Assembly (NCBI GenBank): GCA_049840735.1
Contig: JASGJN010000002.1
Coordinates: forward strand, 96,001 to 160,000
Length of the DNA: 64,000 nt
Source: Anaeromyxobacter sp.
Lineage (GTDB): Bacteria; Myxococcota; Myxococcia; Myxococcales; Anaeromyxobacteraceae
Direction of reading: 5' to 3'
Shown here: positions 7,687-40,742 of the stretch, one piece after another
Position numbering within the stretch: the stretch's first letter is position 1
How the letters are laid out: each line of letters begins with the position of its first letter
Translations under genes and position numbers: made by a program
Notes under the pieces: model-generated
Database searches by the model: none
The model's input: the letters and a program-made list of their open reading frames with translations, nothing else
Told to the model about the DNA's origin: nothing

Positions 7687-8322
7687 ATGCGCGTGATCGG
7701 GCTGACCGGCGGCATCGCCACCGGGAAGAGCACCTTCGCCGCGCTGCTGCGCGAGCGAGGAGCGGCGGTGATCGACGCCGACCAGCTGGCGCGCTCGGTG
7801 GTGGAGCCCGGCACGCCCGCGCTGGGGGCCATCGCCCGCGCCTTCGGCCCGGAGGTGCTGCAGGCCGACGGGCGGCTCGATCGCAAGAAGCTGGGCAGCA
7901 AGGTCTTCGCCGACCCGGAGCAGCGGCGGCGGCTCGAGGCCATCACCCACCCCGCCATCCGCGAGGCCATGGCCGACGAGACCATGCGGCTCGCGGCCCG
8001 CGGCGCCACGCTGGCCTTCTACGACGCCCCGCTCCTCTACGAGGTGGGGATGGACCGTGCGCTCGACGCGGTGGTGGTCGTCTGGGCGCCCCCCGAGGTG
8101 CAGCGGGAGCGGCTGGCCCGCCGGGATGGGCTCAGCCCCGCCGAGGTGGAGGGGCGGCTCCAGGCGCAGCTGCCCATCGACGAGAAGGCGGCCCGCGCGG
8201 ACCTGGTGGTGGAGAACACGGGAGACCCCTCGGCGCTCGCCGAAAAGGCGGACCAGCTGCTGGCCGACCTCCGCCAGGGCCGGGGGCGCAGGCTTCCCAA
8301 CGCGCTCCCCGTGCGTTATTGA
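7687..8322 (+). CDS. coaE: Dephospho-CoA kinase
   Basis: IGLTGGIATGKST, IDAD, LEAITHP, DAPLL. Confidence 0.95.
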   Translation: MRVIGLTGGIATGKSTFAALLRERGAAVIDADQLARSVVEPGTPALGAIARAFGPEVLQADGRLDRKKLGSKVFADPEQRRRLEAITHPAIREAMADETMRLAARGATLAFYDAPLLYEVGMDRALDAVVVVWAPPEVQRERLARRDGLSPAEVEGRLQAQLPIDEKAARADLVVENTGDPSALAEKADQLLADLRQGRGRRLPNALPVRY

Positions 8323-8330
8323 CGCCGGGA

Positions 8331-9459
8331 ATGGGGGAGAGCGCGCGCGTCCACTTCGTCACCGGCTACCCGGGCTTCATCGGGCAGCGGCTGGTGCGGA
8401 AGCTCGCCGAGCGGGACGGCGATCGGCTGGTGCTGCTGGTGCAGCGCGACCGGCTCGACGCCGCCCGGGAGCACCTGGCCGAGATCGGCGCACCGCACGC
8501 CGAGGTGGTCGAGGGCGATGTGCAGCAGATGCACCTCGGCCTGTCCGGCGCGGAGTGGAAGGGGCTCGCCGCCGAGGTCACCGACGTCTGGCACCTGGCG
8601 GCCCGCTCCCGCCTGGGCGCGGCGCGCAGCGAGATGCGGCGCGTGAACGTCGAGGGCACGCGAAACGTCATCGAGCTGGCCGAGGCGGCGCCGCGGCTGC
8701 AGCGGCTCAACCACTTCTCCAGCGCCTACGTCTCCGGCAACCGGGTGGGCGTGATCCTCGAGGACGAGCTGGCCATGGGCCAGCGCTTCCACAACGCCTA
8801 CGAGGAGACGAAGTACCAGGCCGAGCTGCTGGTGCGGCGGGCCCAGTCCACCCTGCCGGCCACCATCTACCGGCCCAGCATCGTGGTGGGGGACTCGCGC
8901 ACCGGCGAGATCGACCGCTTCGAGGGGCCGTACACGCTGGCCATCCTGATGGTGGCCTCCCCGCTGGCGGTGCCGCTGCCGCTGCCCGGCGACGCGGTGG
9001 CCCCGCTCAACGTGGTGCCGGTGGACTTCGTCATCGACGCGGTGACCACGCTGGGGCGGCTGCCGGCGGCGGCGGGGCGGACGGTGCACCTGGTGGATCC
9101 GGCGCCGCTCTCGGCGAGACGCGTGTACGAGATGATCGCGGCGCGCGCGGGCAAGAAGCTGGCGCCGGTTCTCGGTGCCGGCGCGGGCGTTCCAGGCGCT
9201 GCTGCAGCTCCCGCTCGTCGAGCGGCTGTCGCGCACCCACCGGCCGGCCATCGAGTACGTGAACCACCTGGCCATCTACAACTGCCGGAACCTGATCGAG
9301 CTGCTGGACGGCACCGGGATCCGCTGCCCGCCCATCGGCAGCTACCTCGACCGGCTCATCGACTTCGTCCAGGCCAGCTTCGAGCGGCGCCGCGACGAGG
9401 AGCTGGCCCAGCTGGCCGGTGAGCCGGACGATCCACTCGACCCGCGCCCGCCGGCGTGA
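8331..9459 (+). CDS. Extended SDR / NAD-dependent epimerase-reductase; apparent +1 frameshift near 9169
   Basis: VTGYPGFIG, HLAA, YEETK, RPSIVVG; the C-terminus continues in ORF 9175..9459. Confidence 0.8.
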
Positions 9460-9959: not shown

Positions 9960-10436
9960 GTGGCCATCGACAAGCGACACCTGGGCCGCCGCTACGGCCC
10001 CTACCGGTTCGTGGTGGCGGCGGAGGCCATCCGCGACTTCGCAGCCGCCACCGGCGGCGGCGTGCCCGGGCGCGTCTTCGGCGACGTGCCGGAGCACGCG
10101 CATCCGTGGAGCTGGGACGCCGAGGCGGCCAGGGCGTCGCCGCACGGCGACCTGGTGGCCCCGCCCACGTTCGCCACCGTCTTCGCCATCGAGCCCTTCG
10201 CCCGCGCCGTGCGGGACCCCGAGCTGGCCGTCAACGTGCTGCGGCTTGTGCACGGCGAGCAGGCCTTCGAGTTCCTGGAGGTGGTCCGCCCCGGTGACGT
10301 GCTGGAGACCACCGGCGAGATCACCAGGGTGCAGGAGCGCGGCTCCCTCGACTTCCTCGAGGTCACCACCGAGACTCGCAACCAGCACGGCCGGTTGGTG
10401 GTCCGCGGCGTGTGGACTGCGATCGTCCGGAACTGA
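9960..10436 (+). CDS. MaoC-family (HadA/FAS1-type) hot-dog dehydratase partner
   Basis: APPTF and LVHGEQAFEF..VRPGDVL motifs; 3 nt after the MaoC gene. Confidence 0.85.
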   Translation: MAIDKRHLGRRYGPYRFVVAAEAIRDFAAATGGGVPGRVFGDVPEHAHPWSWDAEAARASPHGDLVAPPTFATVFAIEPFARAVRDPELAVNVLRLVHGEQAFEFLEVVRPGDVLETTGEITRVQERGSLDFLEVTTETRNQHGRLVVRGVWTAIVRN

Positions 10437-10443
10437 GGGATCG

Positions 10444-11706
10444 TCAGGCCTCACGGGTCTTCCCCGCGCGCCGCAGGTCGCACCCCAAGAGCGCACGCGC
10501 TGGAGCAAGTGAAGGGGAGAGGGAGAGCGAGAGGGAGAGGGAAGGGACGAAGGCCGCCATCTTCTCGCGGCCGTAGGCCTGCACCGCCGCCCAGAGGTTG
10601 TGCCCCCGGCAGCGGAGCCGGAGGTTGGAGATCGTCGCTGGCCCGCCCATCGCCTCCGGGTCGATGTGGTCCAGCTCCAGCTGCCAGCGGCTGCAGCAGC
10701 GCCGGCCGTCCGGGGAGACGTAGGAGCAGCAGCCGCCATCGCGCGCCCAGACCTCGCGGCGAACGAGGGCTGTGACGGTGCGCGGGTCGAAGCGGTACGC
10801 GGTGGCGAAGAGCGGGAGCGGATCGGTGAAGGGAACCGTGACCGGAACCGGCGCGGAGAGCGTCGCCGGCTTCGGGTCCTCGGGCGCAGCAGCGGCGGGG
10901 GCCGCCGCCCTGTTCAGCTCCACCGCACCCCTTCGCTTGGCGTGCTTCTCGACCGCGCAGCGCAGCGCCTCCTTGAGGACATCGGCCAGGTTTCCGTCGG
11001 GGACCTTGTGGGAGAGGAGTTCACGGAGCGTCTCGAGGTCAGCGTGCGCCGCCTCGTCGAGCGTGACCCGCATCGACCACTGCTCCGCGTTGACCGGGTG
11101 AAGCTCGGGGCGGCTGGGGACGGGGGTGGGCGCCGAGAGCGCGAAGGCGGGCTCCGAGGAAACGGCCGGCTCCTGAGGCTGGGACGGAGCCGCCTCGACC
11201 GGCGCGGTCACCAGTGCAGTCGCACCCGTTGGATCCACCGGACGAGGCTGGGGGGCGGCAGGGGGCGTAGAAGGGAGCCGACGCACCCCGTTCTTCGGCG
11301 CCTCGCGGGGCTTGAGGGTCACCACCAGCCGCTCCACCTCGGCCTTGGACTTGAAGGCGGCGCTCCCGACCAGCTCCTCCAGGTTCTCCTCGGTCAGCAC
11401 GTCGCGCAGCATTCCCAGCGTGGAGAGCGAGAGCCTGCCCTCGCGCAGCGGCGCCTCGAGGGAGGGGAACCGGGACAGCAGCCGCATGGCCGTGATGCGG
11501 CGGTAGGCGCCGTCCTCGGAGAGGTGGAGCACCTCCCGGCAGTAGGCCCACAGGGACGGGAACCCCTGCTCCAGGTAGAGCTTCCGCCGCTCCACCTCCG
11601 CCAGCACCAGCAGGAACCCGACCTTGATGCCCCGCTCGTCCGAGGCGAGAGCGTGCAGCCGGGCGATGAGGGAGCTGTTGTCGAGCACATCGAGTCGGGC
11701 GTTCAT
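10444..11706 (-). CDS. HNH endonuclease with DUF222-like helical N-terminal region
   Basis: C-terminal VRREVWARDGGCC...C...LELDHIDP..GG...SNLRLRCRGHN; N-terminal helical region followed by Pro-rich linkers; ATG 11706 with GGAGG upstream. Confidence 0.88.
   Translation of the reverse strand: MNARLDVLDNSSLIARLHALASDERGIKVGFLLVLAEVERRKLYLEQGFPSLWAYCREVLHLSEDGAYRRITAMRLLSRFPSLEAPLREGRLSLSTLGMLRDVLTEENLEELVGSAAFKSKAEVERLVVTLKPREAPKNGVRRLPSTPPAAPQPRPVDPTGATALVTAPVEAAPSQPQEPAVSSEPAFALSAPTPVPSRPELHPVNAEQWSMRVTLDEAAHADLETLRELLSHKVPDGNLADVLKEALRCAVEKHAKRRGAVELNRAAAPAAAAPEDPKPATLSAPVPVTVPFTDPLPLFATAYRFDPRTVTALVRREVWARDGGCCSYVSPDGRRCCSRWQLELDHIDPEAMGGPATISNLRLRCRGHNLWAAVQAYGREKMAAFVPSLSLSLSLSPSLAPARALLGCDLRRAGKTREA
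10482..10512 (+). repeat. Solo copy of the 41-bp array repeat
   Basis: ACCCCAAGAGCGCACGCGCTGGAGCAAGTGA matches the array unit with one mismatch. Confidence 0.9.
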
Positions 11707-11953
11707 TGGCGTGCACCTCCAGCAGAGGACGCCATCGTAAGCCTGGTTTTCGAGGTGCTCGCCGAGGCCCCTGGCGCCGCCCAGGAGGCGAGATCTCCGC
11801 GAGCCCATCGCCGCTCCCCCACGCGCCTCCCCGCGCGCCCAGGAGATCACGCAGAGCATTGCAGGAGAGGCGTTTCCGGCGGAGCCCCGCCGCGGAAGCC
11901 GCGCCGCGCCAAATTCACGTCAAGCGAAATCCGGCGAATGCCGCGAGACGCCC

Positions 11954-11968
11954 CACTTGCTCCAGCGC
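11954..11968 (-). repeat. Inverted 15-bp copy of the array repeat core
   Basis: CACTTGCTCCAGCGC is the exact reverse complement of GCGCTGGAGCAAGTG. Confidence 0.85.
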
Positions 11969-11989
11969 CGGCGTTTCACGGCGCCTGGG

Positions 11990-12036
11990 CTTCGACTCCG
12001 CGAGCCCTGCGGGCTCGCTACGCTCAGCCCGAACGG
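11990..12036 (-). repeat. REP-like palindromic element, family A
   Basis: CTTCGACTCC-[GCGAGCCC TGC GGGCTCGC]-TACGCTCAGCCCGAACGG; same flanks as the copies at 29125 and 40258. Confidence 0.8.
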
Positions 12037-12082
12037 ATCCCCAACGTCCTCGGCAATGACTTGACCCCGCATCGGATCCATT

Positions 12083-12478
12083 CAAGGGCGCACGCGCTGG
12101 AGTAAGTGACTCTCAGTTGATCCCAAGGGCGCACGCGCTGGAGCGAGTGACTCCCAGTTGACCCCAAGGGCGCACGCGCTGGAGCAAGTAACTCTCAGTT
12201 GACCCCAAGGGCGCACGCGCTGGAGTAAGTAACTCTCAGTTGACTTCAAGGGCGCACGCGCTGGAGTAAGTAACTCTCAGTTGACTCCAAGGGCGCACGC
12301 GCTGGAGCAAGTAACTCTCAGTTGACTCCAAGGACGCACGCGCTGGAGTAAGTGACTCCCAGTTGACCCCTAGGGCGCACGCGCTGGAGCAAGTGACTCT
12401 CAGTTGACCCCAAGGGCGCACGCGCTGGAGCAAGTGACTCTCAGTTGACCCCTAGGGCGCACGCGCCGGAGCAAGTGA
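12083..12478. repeat. Tandem array of 41-bp repeats (9 full + 1 partial)
   Basis: Consensus CAAGGGCGCACGCGCTGGAGYAAGTRACTCYCAGTTGACYY; units start at 12083, 12124, 12165, 12206, 12247, 12288, 12329, 12370, 12411 and 12452. Confidence 0.97.
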
Positions 12479-12718
12479 GCGCGAACACGCCTGACGTCAC
12501 TCCCCCCGTCCCACCGCCCGCCCCCTCTCACCGCCAGCCCCTCCCACGTCCCAGCCCTCCACCCCGCCCCTCAGCACGGCACCGCCCACGGCGCTGGGGC
12601 AGGGGCTCCCCAGCGCCCTGCACCATCGGCAGGTCCGCCCGCCCTCACCCCCACCGCCCCGCACCATCGGCAGGTCCACTCGCAGGCAGCAGCGGCGCAC
12701 CCGCCCGCCACCCGCCAC

Positions 12719-13519
12719 CTACGACGTGATCGCCCCATCCGCGATCAGGTTGGCCAGGATCCTCGCCGTGTCCAGCCTCGGCAGCCCCGACAGCGCGAAC
12801 AGCGCCTCGTAGTCCACCGCCCCGTCGATCTGCGCCAGCAGGAAGCCGGCGCGGTGATCGAGGTTCAGCCAGACGATCTCCTCCGGCTTGATGGCCAGGT
12901 GCGGCACGCCGCCCAGCGGGCCCAGCTTGGACTCGTACATGGCCACCAGCGTGGCCTCGTTCTGCCGCAGGTAGTCCCGGGCCTCGCCGTGGTCAGGGTC
13001 GAGCTGGAGGATCTTCTCGATCAGCTCCAGCGAGCCGCTGAAGTCGCCCAGCGCGAAGAGCTCCTTGGCGGCGCTCATCCAGACGCCGACGTCGTCCTGC
13101 CCCTGCGGCTGCGGCGCGGGCGGGCCCTCGGGGACCAGCGCCTTGAGGTCCGACTTCTCCTCCACCGCCAGCAGGTCCAGGCCGCCGCCGGGCTCCAGCA
13201 CGAACGTGGCCGCGGCGGCGGGCCCTTCGTCCCAGGGTGACGGCGCGTAGTCGTCCCCGGCGCGGGCCGGCGCGGCGCCGGGCGCGGGGAGCGGGACGGC
13301 CGCGCTGGCGGACGGGGCCGGGAGCGGCACCGACGCCGGGGCGGCCGACGCGGCGGCCGGGCCGCTCGCGCCGCCGCTGATGAGCAGCAGGTAGGAGCGG
13401 GCGCGCGGGTTGCCCGGGTCGCGCTCCAGCACCTCCTGGAACGTGCGCAGCGCCTCGCCCACCTTGCCGGCGACGTAGGCCTTGATGCCGCGGTCGATGA
13501 GGTCGGCGAGCTCCGACAC
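12719..13519 (-). CDS. TPR-containing hypothetical protein
   Basis: Two TPR-like segments (EALRTFQEVLERDPGN; LELIEKILQLDPDH) and C-terminal LDHRAGFLLAQIDG. Confidence 0.75.
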   Translation of the reverse strand: MSELADLIDRGIKAYVAGKVGEALRTFQEVLERDPGNPRARSYLLLISGGASGPAAASAAPASVPLPAPSASAAVPLPAPGAAPARAGDDYAPSPWDEGPAAAATFVLEPGGGLDLLAVEEKSDLKALVPEGPPAPQPQGQDDVGVWMSAAKELFALGDFSGSLELIEKILQLDPDHGEARDYLRQNEATLVAMYESKLGPLGGVPHLAIKPEEIVWLNLDHRAGFLLAQIDGAVDYEALFALSGLPRLDTARILANLIADGAITS

Positions 13520-16550: not shown

Positions 16551-17480
16551 TCACCGGTTGGCGAGCAGCAGCTCCAGAAGGGCCTTCTGGGCGTGCAGCC
16601 GGTTCTCGGCCTCGTCGAAGACGGCCGACTGCGGCCCCTCCAGGACGCCCTCGGTGATCTCCTCGCCGCGGTGGGCCGGCAGGCAGTGGAGCACGATGGC
16701 GTTGGGGCGCGCCCGCGCCATCAGCGCCTCGTCCACGATGAAGGCCTTGAAGTGGCGCTCGCGCTCGGCCTGCTCCGCCTCCTGGCCCATGGACGCCCAG
16801 ACGTCGGTGTTGACCACGTGCGCGCCCTCGACCGCCTCGGCGGGGCTGCGGACCACCCGGGCGTGCGCGCCGCAGCGGGCCACCAGCGCCGGATCGGGAT
16901 CGTAGCCGGCGGGGCAGGCCAGGCGCAGGTCGAACCCGAGCACCGCGCAGGCCTCGAGCCAGCTGTTGGCCATGTTGTTGCCGTCGCCGATCCAGGCCAC
17001 CTGCAGGCCGGACCGCGTCAGGACGTCGGCCCCGAACCGCTCGGTGACGGTGAGCAGGTCGGCCAGGAGCTGGCAGGGGTGCGACGAGTCGGTGAGCGCG
17101 TTCACCACCGGCACGTCGGCGTACCTCGCCATCTCCTCGACCTTGGCGTGCTCGAAGGTCCGCACCACCAGGCAGTCGAGGTACCGCGAGAGGACGCGGG
17201 CCGTGTCGCGGATGGGCTCGCCGCGCCCCAGCTGCGTGTCGCGCGGCGACAGCATCATGGCGTTGCCGCCCAGCTGGTAGGAGGCCACCTCGAAGGAGAC
17301 GCGCGTGCGCGTGGAGGCCTTCTCGAAGACCAGGCCCACGGTCAGCTGCTCCAGCGGGCGCGGCCCGCCCTTGCCGAGGAGCTTCCACTCCGCGGCGCGC
17401 TCGATGAGCTCCAGCAGCTCGGAGCGGTCCAGGTCGGTGAGGCGGAGGAAGTCGCGGTGGTTGCGGGTCGGGGCGGGCAT
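16551..17480 (-). CDS. argF: Ornithine carbamoyltransferase
   Basis: FEKASTRTR, HPCQ, GDGNN, DVWASMG, HCLP. Confidence 0.95.
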   Translation of the reverse strand: MPAPTRNHRDFLRLTDLDRSELLELIERAAEWKLLGKGGPRPLEQLTVGLVFEKASTRTRVSFEVASYQLGGNAMMLSPRDTQLGRGEPIRDTARVLSRYLDCLVVRTFEHAKVEEMARYADVPVVNALTDSSHPCQLLADLLTVTERFGADVLTRSGLQVAWIGDGNNMANSWLEACAVLGFDLRLACPAGYDPDPALVARCGAHARVVRSPAEAVEGAHVVNTDVWASMGQEAEQAERERHFKAFIVDEALMARARPNAIVLHCLPAHRGEEITEGVLEGPQSAVFDEAENRLHAQKALLELLLANR

Positions 17481-17494
17481 GGGTCTCTCGACGG

Positions 17495-18704
17495 TCAGGG
17501 CTTGGCGGGCGCCGCCGCCAGGGCGGCGCCGAGCCGCTCGACGGCCTGGTCGGCCTCGGCAGCGGTGAGGGTCAGGGCCGGGGCGAGGCGGAGCACGTCG
17601 TCCCCGATGGCGTTCACGAGCAGGCCGCGGGCGCGGGCGGCCTTCATCACCTCTCCGGCGGCCACGCCCTTCACCAGCACGCCCAGCAGCATGCCGCGGC
17701 CGCGCACGCCGGCCAGCCGGCCGCCGTTGCCCAGCTTCTCCAGGCCGGCCCGGAGCCGGGCCGCGACCTCGCGCGAGCGCTCCAGCACGCCGCCCTGCCG
17801 CAGCTCGCGCAGGACCGCCAACGCCACGGCGCTGGCCAGCGGGTTGCCGCCGAAGGTGCTGCCGTGCGAGCCGGGCGTGAGGTGCTGGCCCACCTCCTCC
17901 GACGCGAGCAGCGCGCCGATGGGGAAGCCGCCGCCCAGCGCCTTCGCCGTGGAGAGCAGGTCCGGCGTGAAGCCGAGCCACTCGTGGGCCCACATCTTCC
18001 CGGTGCGGCCCATGCCGGTCTGGACCTCGTCCAGGCAGAGCAGCACGCCGCGCTTGCGGGTCAGCTCGCGGGCGGCCTCGAGGTAGCCCTCCGGCGCCGG
18101 GAGCACCCCCGACTCGCCCTGGATCGGCTCCACGATGAAGGCGGCGGTCCGGTCGGTGAGCGCCGCGTCGAGCGCCGCCAGGTCGCCGAACGGCACGTGG
18201 CGCACGCCCGGGACCAGCGGCTCGAAGCCGTGCTGGTACTTCTCCTGCCCGCCCACGGTCACGGTGAAGAGCGTGCGCCCGTGGAAGGAGTCCTTGCAGG
18301 CGACGATTCTCGTTGCGCTCCGGGTGGCCCCGGTCGGCGTGGTACTTGCGCGCCAGCTTCAGCATCACCTCGTTGGCCTCGGCGCCGCTGTTGCAGAAGA
18401 AGGCGCGCGACGCGAACGGCGTGGCGGCCAGCAGGGCCTCCGCCAGCTCGACCTGCCGCGGGATGAAGTAGTGGTTGGAGACGTGCCAGACCGCGCGGGC
18501 CTGCGCCTCGAGCGCCTCCACCAGCGCCGGGTGGCAGTGCCCGAGCACGTTGACCGCCACGCCGCCCAGGAAGTCGAGGTACTCGTTCCCGTCGGCGTCC
18601 CACACGCGGCTGCCCTCGCCGCGGACGATGGCGACGGGCTGCTGCTTGTAGTTGGGGGTGAGGACCTTCTGGGCCCGCTCCGCGAGCTGCGCGTTGCCGT
18701 TCAT
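17495..18704 (-). CDS. argD: Acetylornithine aminotransferase; apparent +1 frameshift near 18307
   Basis: YLDFLGG, NSGAEANE, then FHGR, EPIQGE, DEVQTG, AKALGGG in the next frame. Confidence 0.9.
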
Positions 18705-21943: not shown

Positions 21944-22870
21944 CTAGGCCTTCCGCGCCCGCGGATGGGCCTGGTCGTAGACGGTGGCCAGCCGCTTCCA
22001 GTCGAGGTGGGTGTACCGCTGCGTGGTGGAGAGCGAGGCGTGGCCCAGCAGCTCCTGGATGCCGCGCAGGTCGGCGCCGTTGCCCAGCAGGTGGGTGGCG
22101 AAGCAGTGGCGGAGCACGTGCGGGTGGACGTGGCGCGGGAGGCCGGCCTCCAGCACCCAGCGGTCGAGCAGGCGCGCCACCGAGCGGCTGGTGAGGCGTC
22201 CGCCGCGGTGGTTCAGGAACAGCGCCGCGCCGGCCCGGGCGCGCTCGGGCCCGGCCGCCAGCACCACCCGCCCCTCGTCGAGGTACCGGCGCAGCGCCTC
22301 GGCGGCGGGCCGGCCGAAGGGGACGATCCGCTCCTTGCGCCGCTTGCCCAGCACCCGCACCAGCCCGCCGGACAGGTCCAGGTCCTCCCGGTCCAGGCCG
22401 GTCAGCTCGGAGACGCGGAGGCCGCTGCCGTAGAGCAGCTCCAGGAAGGCGCGATCGCGCAGGCGGAGCGGCTGCGAGAGCGGCCCGGGCGCCTCCACCA
22501 GCGCCGCCACCTCGGCCTCGGGCAGCACCTCCGGCAGCCGCTTGGGGCGGCGCGGCGAGGCCACCCCGCGGGCCGGGTTCCCGGCCGCCAGCCCCTCGCG
22601 GACCAGGAAGCTGTAGAGCGAGCGGATGGCCGAGAGCTTCCGGCCCAGGCTCACCGCCCCCGCCTCGCCGGCCGCCCGGGCCAGGTAGGCGCGGATCAGC
22701 GCGGTCGAGGACGGGATGACGCCCTGCCCGACCGAGGCCAGGTAGCCGGCGTACTGCGCGAGGTCGATCCGGTAGGCCTTGAGCGTGTGGGGCGAGGCCC
22801 GGCGCTCGGTGGCCAGGTAGCGGTCGAACCGCTGGATCTCCGGGGGCAGCGCGGCGACGTCGATGGCCAC
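21944..22870 (-). CDS. xerC: Tyrosine recombinase XerC
   Basis: SPHTLKAY, GLRVSEL, HPHVLRHCFATH, LLGHASLSTTQRY; position upstream of hslVU. Confidence 0.93.
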   Translation of the reverse strand: MAIDVAALPPEIQRFDRYLATERRASPHTLKAYRIDLAQYAGYLASVGQGVIPSSTALIRAYLARAAGEAGAVSLGRKLSAIRSLYSFLVREGLAAGNPARGVASPRRPKRLPEVLPEAEVAALVEAPGPLSQPLRLRDRAFLELLYGSGLRVSELTGLDREDLDLSGGLVRVLGKRRKERIVPFGRPAAEALRRYLDEGRVVLAAGPERARAGAALFLNHRGGRLTSRSVARLLDRWVLEAGLPRHVHPHVLRHCFATHLLGNGADLRGIQELLGHASLSTTQRYTHLDWKRLATVYDQAHPRARKA

Positions 22871-22938: not shown

Positions 22939-25389
22939 CTACTCCCGGCTCCGCGGCGGCAGGATCGCGTCCGGCCCCAGCGCGTGGGCCACGTCCACCG
23001 CCTGCTCGGCGCCCGGCCCGTGGCAGACCTGGCAGGTCTCCACCGGCCCCTCCGGCGAGGCCCAGGTGTTGAGCGCGGCGTGACCGGCCTCGGCGGCGGA
23101 GTCGTGGCAGCCCAGGCAGCTCGCGGTGGAGGGCGCCTGCCAGGCCACGTTGCGGCAGGTGCCGGCCTGGCAGGCCTGGCCCACGCTGCAGGCCGAGTCG
23201 TCGTTGCAGCTGCCGCCCTCGTCGGCGTGGCAGGACCTGCAGTTGCGCAGGTCCACCGGCAGCAGCGTCTCGGAGAAGGACAGGTAGAGGTTGCTGAAGC
23301 CCACCAGCCCGTAGAGGCCCGGCTCCACCCGGTTGTTCCGCTCCGCGTAGCCATCCAGCGTCCGCGCGGCGTGGAGCCGGTGGGCCAGCTCCCCCAGCGC
23401 GATGCTGGCGCCCGGGGTCGGGTCCTCCGTCATGATGCAGCGGGAGGCCTGGCAGGTCTCCCAGCCGCCGGCGTAGCCGAGGCAGTCCGACGGCTCCGCG
23501 CAGGACTGGCCGGCCGAGCCCACCGCCCGGTCGAGCGCGCCGGCGGTGTGGCAGGTGACGCACCCCTCCACCGGACGGCGCGAGCCGCCGTGGGCCTGCA
23601 GCTGGCCGTGGCAGGCGTTGCACGCGTCGTCGGTGACCACGCGGCGGTGCCGGGCCATGGTCCCCGCTCCGAACCTCACCGGCACGACGGCGCTGGCGAC
23701 GTTGCGCCGGTTGGTGCTGCCCGTGAGCACGGACCTGTGGACGTAGGCATAGACCAGGTAGCTGCCGGGCAGCGCGACGCCGGTCGGCTGGTCGCTGTTG
23801 AGCGGCGCCAGCGTGGCGGACGGCCAGGGCGGGCCGGCCAGCGCGTAGCGCTGCGAGGCCGCGTCGTAGGTGAGGCCGGCCTTGCTGGTGATGACGAAGA
23901 GCCGCTGGGGCGCCTCCGCAGGGCCGGCCACGAGGTAGGTCAGGGAGTAGGTGGGGTTGGTCCTCACGTCGGTGACGGGCGCGCCGGCGTCGGTCAGGCC
24001 GAACGCCAGGGTGGGGACGTCGCCCAGCTGGAACTCGCCCCCCGAGCCGCTGGCGCCGCTGACGGTCACGCCGGTCAGGGCCAGGCTCTGCGCGACGGAC
24101 GGCTGGGTGTGGCGGGCCGTGACCGGGGAGAGCGAGCCCTCTCCGCCGTGGCAGACCGCGCACTGGCTGTCATCCGCCTGGTCGGGGTGGGAGGTGCGCT
24201 GGCAGCTGCCGGTGCCGGTGTTGCAGGTCAGGAGCGCGCCGAGGCTGGCGCAGTCGGCGTCCACGGCGCAGGCCACGCCGGCCGGGCGGCCGAGGTCATG
24301 CGGCGGGTCGATCACGCCGGTCGCGAAGGAGACGTTGTCGTGGCAGGTGCCGCAGGCCAGGCGCGAGGGGCGCTCGGCCCAGCGCTGGTCGGCGTGGCAG
24401 GCGGCGCAGTCCTTCTCGCCGTCGGGCATGGAGGGGAAGACCACGTCCACGTAGTCCATCAGCGAGTGGTCGCTCCCCAGCCCGTACTCGGCGTGCGCCG
24501 CGCCCGGCGCGGTCAGGTGCCCGCCGCGGTGGATGCCATGGACCTTCCGCACGGCGGGCTGGGGCGAGTAGCCCTCCAGGTTGTGGCAGAGCTGGCAGCT
24601 CCCCGAGGGCGCCGCGTCCAGCGAGGGGAGCCCGGCCGGCGCGTAGCTGCTGGAGCGCGCGTGGGCCATCTGCATCCGCCCGGAGGTGGCGCCCAGGTGG
24701 CAGGCCGCGCAGGTGGAGCCGTCCACCGGACCGGACGCGTAGGACTCGACCGTGGCCGTGCCGATCTGCACGTCCACCAGCTCCAGCTGGTCCTTCCACT
24801 GGGCGGAGTGGAGCCGCAGGCCGGCGGTGTAGGTGCCAGGCGCCTCGTCGGAGATGGGCGCCAGCGTGTACTGGAGCGAGCCGTCCGGGAGGGTGACCAG
24901 GTTCTCCTGCGCTGGCTCGGCGTAGGTCGGCGCCTTCAGGTCGATGTGGTGCTGGAAGGGACCGGACACCGCGTTGAGCAGGCGGGTGGCGCTGCGGGTC
25001 TGCAGCGTCGCGCGCGGCCCGGCCATGAGCAGCTCGGCCGTGGAGAAGCGGTCCAGCCCCACCGCCCGGCCGCAGCCGTCATGGAGGGAGATGGTGAGCA
25101 CCACCCGATTGCCGGCGCCGAAGAATCCGGCCGCGGGCGCGGCGGCGGCAGCGAACGTCACGTGGAGCGAGGCGTCGGCCGCGTCGGGCCAGTCACAGCC
25201 CGCCGGCCCGGTCGGGCCCGTCGGACCGGTCGGACCGGTCGGCCCCGTCGGACCGGTCGGCCCCGTGGGCCCGGTCGAGCCCGTCGGGCCGGTGGGCCCG
25301 GTTGCACCCTGCGCGCCCTCCGAGCCGCTGCAGGCGGTGAGCAGCACGAACCCCAGGACGATGCCGGCGAGGAGGTGCAGGTGGCGCAT
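22939..25389 (-). CDS. Decaheme OmcA/MtrC-like outer-membrane cytochrome lipoprotein
   Basis: Lipobox LLTAC, (GPT)n linker and ten CxxCH motifs. Confidence 0.85.
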
Positions 25390-25520
25390 GGCCGAGGATG
25401 CTAGCACCTGCTACGAGGTGACCAGACCGAGGGTTGCTGTCCGGGAGGAGCGACCCACCGCAAAGGCGCAGGGCGCCTGATCGCGATTAATGGTCGTCCG
25501 GGTCGAGGCCACCTGGGCCT

Positions 25521-40304: not shown

Positions 40305-40337
40305 CGCCCCCTCCCCCAGGTTCCCTGGGGCCCCCAA

Positions 40338-40742
40338 CCCATCCCTACTCATGCTCCCCGCGCGCTGCCCGCCGGCACCGGCGGAGTGTCTCGCGGGGGT
40401 TGCACCCCCGCCCCGCCGGCGAAGCCGTCGGGGCCCCACCCCTGCTGCGGCGGAGCCGAGCGCGCTGCGGCCTCCGGCCTTGCGCGCTTTCCGCCGACGA
40501 GGGGGCTACGCCCCCTCCCCATCCCTACTCATGCTCCCCGCGCGTGCCCGCCGGCACCGGCGGAGTGTCTCGCGGGGGTTGCACCCCCGCCCCGCCGGCG
40601 AAGCCGTCGGGGCCCCACCCCTGCTGCGGCGGAGCCGAGCGCGCTGCGGCCTCCGGCCTTGCGCGCTTTCCGCCGACGAGGGGGCTACGCCCCCTCCCCA
40701 TCCCTACTCATGCTCCCCGCGCGTGCCCGCCGGCACCGGCGG
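40338..40742. repeat. About 180-bp tandem duplication (2 units + partial) containing the family B repeat and the aglZ 3' end
   Basis: CTACTCATGCTCCCCGCGCG recurs at 40345, 40525 and 40704. Confidence 0.92.

Follow-up and report, generated by a model that had tools for sequence, protein, structure and literature searches.

A multicopy HNH nuclease cassette of Anaeromyxobacter with an 18-bp site at its ends and a fixed-length leader: a candidate selfish element

The DUF222/REP13E12 repeats of mycobacteria (PF02720) are dispersed, multicopy units that encode a DUF222-like N-terminus and a C-terminal HNH domain and carry no transposase. REP13E12 was among the repetitive elements recovered in a search for mobile elements (PMC10589994). 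A second source describes frequent gene conversion, gives the function as undefined and names a prophage attachment site as a feature of the repeats (PMC13061034). The cassette described here is closest in kind to these repeats. It lies in a stretch of 64,000 nucleotides from Anaeromyxobacter sp. (assembly GCA_049840735.1, contig JASGJN010000002.1, positions 96,001 to 160,000), which we call the window. It is about 2.2 kb long and combines a gene for a 420-residue DUF222-like/HNH protein with an array of ten 41-bp repeats. We read it as a selfish cassette of DUF222/REP13E12-like kind and of the size of an insertion sequence (IS), whose own protein would bind and nick near the ends and which host repair would copy, sometimes on IS50 ends. 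We regard this reading as about an even call. In the literature that was searched, largely without subscription journals, no description of the ends, mechanism, 18-bp site or leader of these elements was found.

Unlike the REP13E12 proteins, the window protein scores under the Pfam cut-off for DUF222/PF02720 (18.1 vs 24.4 bits). Its HNH match is also sub-threshold (21.1 bits, cut-off 21.4). Several homologues at 44–49% identity bear a precomputed PF02720 label, and homologues carry the names Anaeromyxobacter or Anaeromyxobacteraceae. What is defined for the present cassette comprises its ends with their 18-bp site, a leader of fixed length, empty sites and the capture by IS50 ends. MIC231 elements are passenger genes between IS231 ends. 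As in these and in the IS50 subgroup of the IS4 family, 19-bp IS50-type ends and 8–11-bp duplications bound the cassette in genomes G017, G021, G023 and others, but there is no DDE transposase with a YREK motif inside, and the lineage of the window has neither ends nor duplications. With the OMEGA nucleases (IscB, TnpB) the cassette shares a nuclease that is kept intact on a mobile element; it differs in having no RuvC match and no RNA scaffold signal, and recognition looks protein-based from the sequence and the structural model. Both the OMEGA nucleases and the IS4-family cassettes serve here as analogies. Free-standing HNH homing endonucleases likewise join an HNH domain to a separate predicted DNA-binding domain. 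Unlike them, the cassette occupies many unrelated intergenic sites per chromosome instead of one homologous site, lies in no intron or intein and is nearly absent from the viral contigs scanned. PMC13565253 describes restorative homing for OMEGA nucleases and, as a general account, the spread of homing endonucleases by break-induced gene conversion. RAYT/REPIN systems resemble the cassette in their intergenic position, mostly at convergent gene ends, and in a covarying terminal hairpin, gene-less relics and an internal REP. The cassette differs from these and from IS200/IS605 in that its open reading frame (ORF) is HNH rather than Y1 and is itself multicopy, and its hairpin module lies beside no Y1 gene of this genome.

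The gene and the three sets of repeats are arranged as follows.
10444..11706, minus strand: DUF222-like/HNH ORF, 420 residues, ATG at 11706, the sole gene of the cassette
12079..12478, minus strand: spacer-free array of ten 41-bp units, all of which hold an imperfect 18-bp site
10482..10512, minus strand: 3′ repeat copy in array orientation, with its 18-bp site at 10493–10510
11954..11973, plus strand: inverted copy of the repeat core, with its 18-mer at 11955–11972

The first-pass annotation of this DNA had described a ten-unit array upstream of the gene, a copy in its 3′ end and an inverted copy, found the repeat nowhere else in the window and judged the array lower in GC than the flanking genes. 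All of this stands, the inverted copy being defined here as 11954–11973. The tandem-repeat call covers 12083–12478 (period 41, 9.7 copies, 93% matches), and ten 31-nucleotide cores span 12079–12478, about 375 bp from the ORF start. The units are contiguous and differ by point changes only. GC is 61% in the array and 72–74% in three neighbouring genes. The 3′ copy is 81–97% identical to the array units, and beyond it the cassette copies lose similarity within about 25 bp. The inverted copy provides 20-nucleotide arms with complementarity of up to 90%. The 64-kb window holds no further copy of the repeat.

A palindrome scan of 120 loci gave a recurrent 18-mer, RCT-N4-C-YR-G-N4-AGY. A score of at least 10.5 is reached upstream of the gene in 32 of 89 de-duplicated loci (background 2.75%) and at the 3′ end of the ORF in 14 of 89 (genome background 0.5%; in-ORF control 4/89). 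Sites scoring at least 10 number 27 in the first 50 nucleotides after residue 386 and at most 7 in any other bin. The 3′ repeat copy of the window matches the position of the 18-mer in other lineages, which is 27–39 nucleotides after the same residue. A two-base variant was compared between upstream and 3′ copies in 12 elements; agreement is full in 10, partial in one and absent in one. In G079, which belongs to a clade without the 18-mer, a different palindrome is found at both ends. In 8 of 103 loci of other genomes (control 0), a motif immediately before the leader is similar to the remainder of the 41-bp unit. These site comparisons show the 18-mer marking both cassette ends in several lineages, and it is probably the DNA site of the protein. 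Three roles had been proposed for the array: a structured RNA cofactor, tandem binding or decoy sites, or a target amplified by cleavage and repair. Of these, putative binding or decoy sites appear the likeliest.

The gene had been placed in a 2.3-kb gap between convergent host genes and considered part of a possible mobile unit, and both proposals are supported. The flanks are as follows.
9960..10436, plus strand: MaoC-like dehydratase gene, host flank outside the element, next to the TPR gene in relatives
12719..13519, minus strand: TPR gene, host flank outside the element

The two genes end at 10436 and 12719 and are separated by 2.28 kb. At 29 orthologous TPR loci in relatives, a MaoC-like gene lies within 1.5 kb in 15 and within 166 bp in 11, and none of the 29 has an HNH gene. 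The cassette is an insertion, and the orthologous site is empty in relatives. Two filled-versus-empty pairs between G014 and G006 show no duplication, with 18–47 bp replaced or lost; a third locus compared is filled in both genomes. In G023, long hexamer tracts surround the HNH cassettes as well as the IS50-type elements; another such tract is present at an empty site in G013 (loci L041–L060, L095, L103, L147). They look like preferred targets. The notion that G-rich microsatellites beside the copies are products of the element is unsupported, as a tract occurs also at the empty site L147 and around IS4 elements.

The genome of the window (G000) contains 12 full-length HNH genes that are 70–95% identical to the window copy (itself included in the series), one internally deleted gene and two distant relatives. 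Upstream units are present in 12 of the 13 close copies (1–12 units, five copies with four or more) and the 3′ copy in all 13, so that homologues in this genome do carry flanking repeats. The units per copy number 10, 12, 1, 4, 4, 2, 2, 2, 1, 1, 5, 2 and 0. The inverted core is found with at most one mismatch in 8 of the 13 and is degenerate or palindromic in the remainder. A genome-wide search with a 23-nucleotide core at up to four mismatches gave 87 hits, 61 of them beside HNH genes. Five of the other 26 have at most two mismatches, and all five lie in four gene-less cassette relics; one of the 21 with three or four mismatches lies in a relic and 20 are scattered. At two mismatches or fewer, no hit in this genome falls outside the HNH copies and the four relics, which upholds the proposed tie between the repeat and the nuclease gene. 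None of 36 further genomes of the genus has the 41-mer array, although the protein was matched in 24 of 24 sampled. The repeat therefore belongs to the cassette, yet the array as such is lineage-specific and variable. With 0–12 units among paralogues, it is ruled out as a conserved feature of the family.

The 11 copies of this genome included in a tree form one clade with support of 100. About seven rows of the tree are wrong-frame or fragmentary (a long-branch group), one locus is duplicated and the C12 copy is missing; the tree was used only for well-supported genome-specific clades. The copies are mosaic, with recombination detected over 205 sites (PHI-like p<0.001). In 11 of 13 copies, the first host ORF downstream faces the element, as judged with a codon-bias heuristic. 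This genome also contains seven 18-bp palindromes of the family type that are near-perfect and have a common context (C17:152780, C20:224266, C21:353089, C26:12776, C26:476050, C26:552594, C13:763972). One is upstream of a distant fragmented paralogue and two are in hairpin relics.

The model of the full-length protein (predicted local distance difference test, pLDDT, 79) has three ordered parts with disordered linkers between them.
11308..11682, minus strand: N-terminal helical domain, residues 9–133, ParB/Spo0J/KorB-like helix-turn-helix (HTH), pLDDT 91.8 when modelled alone
10918..11079, minus strand: ribbon-helix-helix (RHH)-like module, residues about 210–263, strand-helix-helix in the model
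10570..10794, minus strand: HNH nuclease domain, residues about 305–379, DH..GG..NL..C..HN motif with cysteines

The best fold matches of the N-terminal domain are the DNA-binding domain of ParB (6s6h; Z 7.0, root-mean-square deviation 5.1, 108 residues aligned) and KorB (8qa8; Z 6.7, deviation 3.4, 97 aligned). Foldseek returned ParB 6sdk with probability 0.94 and E 0.8. All matches are below Z 8, and the kinship to ParB and KorB is suggestive only; from the model we infer that this domain binds DNA. The RHH-like module has weak matches to the MazE6 N-domain (Z 4.6) and the pCXC100 ParB (Z 4.4) and would serve dimerisation. The HNH domain matches phage GVE2 HNH (Z 7.3), IscB HNH (Z 7.2) and McrA (Z 7.2), and a sequence search against solved structures gave weak HNH matches only. 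Across the 12 copies dN/dS, the ratio of non-synonymous to synonymous rates, is 0.35 overall, 0.27 for the HTH, 0.14 for the RHH and 0.22 for the HNH domain, and 0.71 and 0.79 in the linkers. These values show purifying selection on all three domains. No transposase domain was detected in the ORF: Pfam has neither a DDE family nor Y1_Tnp, and a check of 104 members against NCBIfam gave one weak ISKra4 hit (E 0.009). The model contains four short strands only, and the fold matches include no DDE/RNase H or Tn5 DNA-binding domain, though a remote link could still exist. At E≤1e-10 the family comprises 10,736 clusters. Look-alikes occur in Myxococcota, Acidobacteriota and Bdellovibrionota; a stricter first look placed the protein in 16 of 121 genomes of the phylum. 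In G068 (L293–L302), two distant protein subfamilies of one genome have common DNA at the 3′ end, indicating from sequence that ends are exchanged between subfamilies.

Between the array side of the cassette and the gene lies a leader of conserved length.
11734..11923, minus strand: leader, with TTGAC at 11919–11923, a −10-like hexamer at 11734–11739, and, in the stretch separating the two, A/T with a period of about 9.75 bp

In 114 of 126 loci (control 4), TTGAC precedes the start by 150–260 bp. Its distance to the −10-like motif in 76 de-duplicated leaders is 176–180 bp in 60 and 167–170 bp in 15. The two length classes (168 or 178 bp) differ by about one helical turn and are found in most lineages. 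The 9.75-bp A/T period has a power of 2.25 over 34 lineages (shuffle 99th percentile 1.55). When 435 other upstream regions of the genome of the window were sampled 2000 times, no draw reached this power. No canonical sigma-70 promoter was found in 10300–12800. The leader gives no signal of RNA folding (mean z −0.2 on both strands for 38 sequences, no consensus structure in 76, and structure z of −1.3 to +1.2 in lineage alignments). Helical phasing of A/T with no sign of RNA structure suggests that the leader serves as a DNA surface for wrapping or looping. Loci without the usual TTGAC position yielded no shortened, ‘excised’ leader. Just upstream of the leader in two copies of one genome (L180, L228), there are fragments that by eye resemble the start of an IS481-type transposase.

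The movement of the cassette might be explained entirely by other elements. It would then be passive, non-autonomous cargo of trans-acting transposases, IS50-type DDE enzymes in several relatives and Y1/RAYT-type HUH enzymes acting on the 5′ hairpin or REP in G000; its protein would only autoregulate or serve the host, and the array would be neutral slippage. As a full account this is the main rival and a serious one, though less likely than the selfish cassette; for how the IS50-ended lineages move, passive carriage is well supported. Paired 19-bp inverted ends occur among the copies fetched in 17 of 20 for G023, 7 of 10 for G017 and 8 of 10 for G021. Target duplications of 8–11 bp are clear in G021 (6/8 vs 1/56 cross-locus pairs), partly confounded in G017 (7/7 vs 19/42) and uninformative in G023 (16/17 vs 197/272), where cassettes and IS50-type elements both have mostly 8-bp duplications and the same hexamer tracts. 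Given only the ends of HNH cassettes, a matrix recovers those of 7 of 7 IS4-family NF033590 elements, all of which have a perfect 8–11-bp duplication. The G017 ends agree with all seven positions of the IS50-subgroup end consensus as given in Table 1 of PMC2266710. IS50-type ends are present in 36 of 125 loci, spread over several clades. The helper family NF033590 is found in 10 of 36 genus genomes, G023 included. It is not in G000, G017, G021 or G007, and PF14706 is likewise not in G000, G017 or G021; since the bounded copies are 80–97% identical, a helper could have been lost. Many multicopy lineages, however, have no IS50-type ends. The 13 loci of G000 have none (scores at most 8.8 bits, background 99th percentile 11.4), no terminal inverted repeats and no target duplication beyond chance, the longest shared words being 6–10 nucleotides at 10 loci vs 5–12 cross-locus. 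Their copies have no end in common with the 8 resident DDE loci tested, of 15–17 PF01609 matches, or with the one Y1 locus tested. Around IS50-type end motifs, 20 further loci gave 14 with an HNH hit and none with paired ends around another gene. Cargo of no use to the element should also decay, and the HNH motif is unbroken in 12 of 12 copies of G000.

In G000 the candidate carrier would be a Y1 enzyme, and two features of the cassette bear on it.
12590..12683, minus strand: 5′ end module, with a 10-bp-stem hairpin at 12590–12617, a boundary near 12632 and, 41 bp farther outward, a short duplication
11984..12036, unstranded: REP-like palindrome, found genome-wide with 289 hits of at least 45 nucleotides, 98 at 90% identity or more; hairpin z −2.1

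The 5′ hairpin was found 21 times in the genome; 12 of these occurrences are at HNH loci, and the other 9 have no gene. One stem pair is G-C in 7, T-A in 6, A-T in 4, C-G in 1, G-T in 1 and unpaired in 2, thus taking all four Watson-Crick forms. The genome has six Y1_Tnp matches, and a 12-mer that terminates five relic loci recurs three times around one Y1 gene; against a Y1 carrier, the hairpin module was found beside none of the six. A separate end motif of about 35 bp has 19 sites in G000 (including C17:604561 and a cluster at C17:350–373 kb). It flanks a Y1 (RAYT-like) gene and recurs without the gene, twice beside hairpin relics. Three near-identical Y1-family genes with common flanks, one frameshifted (C7:245373, C12:95822, C2:170779), suggest from their sequences a recently mobile HUH element. 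The slot of the REP-like palindrome holds at least four REP types across the cassette copies, by eye. In G096, six copies are 97–99% identical; five have a common 3′ end and the 5′ sides differ, with 5′ pieces matching a locus that has an identical 3′ end and, by eye, transposase-like fragments.

Two explanations without a carrier were also weighed. A gene family useful or addictive to the host (defence, DNA repair or a nucleoid role) might simply have been duplicated, the 18-bp sites being ordinary operators. Purifying selection, the presence of the gene in all sampled genomes of the genus and loci common to G014 and G006 agree with this, as do the absence of any match among 72,556 plasmids and a single, 58-residue, HNH-only match in the viral contigs scanned. 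We consider it improbable: positions vary between genomes, expansions are genome-specific, broken or partial copies are numerous, and some ends persist as relics without the gene. More improbable still is an RNA-associated nuclease, in which the array or leader would yield a structured RNA that acts as cofactor or guide, after the manner of IscB/omegaRNA or TIGR-Tas. IscB RNA is encoded upstream of the ORF, and the cassette has a non-coding leader of conserved length in that position across phyla, an HNH fold match to IscB and a covarying 5′ hairpin. The first-pass annotation had entertained such a cofactor and pointed to IscB and Cas9, and neither idea is supported. There is no Rfam match within the element, and units fold like shuffled sequences (z 0.67 and 0.81 for one unit, −1.3 and −0.01 for three), as the leader does. 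The match to the IscB profile NF040563 reaches 17.8 bits (cut-off 175) over residues 315–370, within the HNH domain only; kinship to IscB or Cas9 beyond this domain is unsupported. TIGR arrays have repeats with variable spacers, and a CRISPR- or TIGR-type array is ruled out because the units are contiguous without them. The failure to find the array in the 36 other genomes also speaks against an RNA role.

The selfish-cassette reading is favoured because the gene has multiplied and remained intact both where IS50 ends are present and where they are not, and because the end site fits a palindrome-binding HTH dimer. The description of REP13E12 loci as gene-conversion hot spots in PMC13061034 also counts for it. 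According to this reading, a dimeric protein would bind the 18-bp sites through its HTH and the HNH domain would nick nearby. Host repair or replication would then copy the cassette to new intergenic positions and convert between copies. The array may represent sites amplified locally, either through slippage primed by nicks or through unequal exchange. With its 41 bp a unit spans about four helical turns, and the array would supply at most extra binding or decoy sites. In lineages with IS50-type ends, an IS4-family DDE transposase would move the captured cassette in trans. Several points weigh against this reading. The loci that were scored had also supplied the 18-mer pattern, and kin among them are not independent. 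The 3′ sites of G000 score 9–10, under the 10.5 bar, and the 18-mer was not seen in several multicopy clades (G014, G021, G096 and the Eisenbacteria loci). Concordance of the two-base variant can be explained by plain shared ancestry. Binding, nicking and movement are steps that we infer, and the fold matches of the modelled N-terminal domain stay below Z 8. The IS50-type ends with their duplications mean that borrowed transposases can explain movement in some lineages, and the covarying hairpin together with relic ends common to the surroundings of a Y1 gene points to a possible HUH helper in G000. HNH domains are not known to form a covalent link to DNA, and strand transfer must therefore be host-supplied. 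A further step, which we advance only tentatively, is that these cassettes constitute an undescribed class of autonomous mobile element. Here an HTH-RHH-HNH protein would bind 18-bp ends, wrap or loop the phased 168/178-bp leader and nick, and host repair would copy the unit without transposase, recombinase or reverse transcriptase; the class would comprise more than 10,000 clusters (50% identity), and IS ends would have captured its members again and again.

As had been stated, no cas or transposase family is nearby: none was found among 54 further ORFs, of 86 candidates, scanned at E≤1e-8. The one tyrosine recombinase (21947–22870) adjoins a proteasome-subunit/AAA-ATPase pair, and the group is read as host xerC-hslVU. 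A protein with an MtrC/MtrF-like outer-membrane cytochrome domain is encoded at 22942–25407. An aminotransferase class III gene at 16554–18704 is divided between two frames, and an SDR-like gene at 8319–9459 apparently finishes in a second frame; these may be assembly indel errors or pseudogenes. A 179-bp unit at 40330–40742 is repeated 2.3 times with 98% identity and has REP-like inverted segments.

With this analysis, the ends of a very large DUF222/HNH-related family become defined, and the family gains empty alleles, a candidate 18-bp site for its protein and a helically phased leader of fixed length. If the cassettes form an autonomous class, this would suggest how the DUF222/REP13E12 repeats spread. 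If an HNH nuclease alone mobilises DNA, transposition would have a new mode, and the family would be a source of compact nucleases whose recognition is protein-based. If autonomy is false, it would be an unusual cargo gene that has been picked up repeatedly by several unrelated transposon ends.

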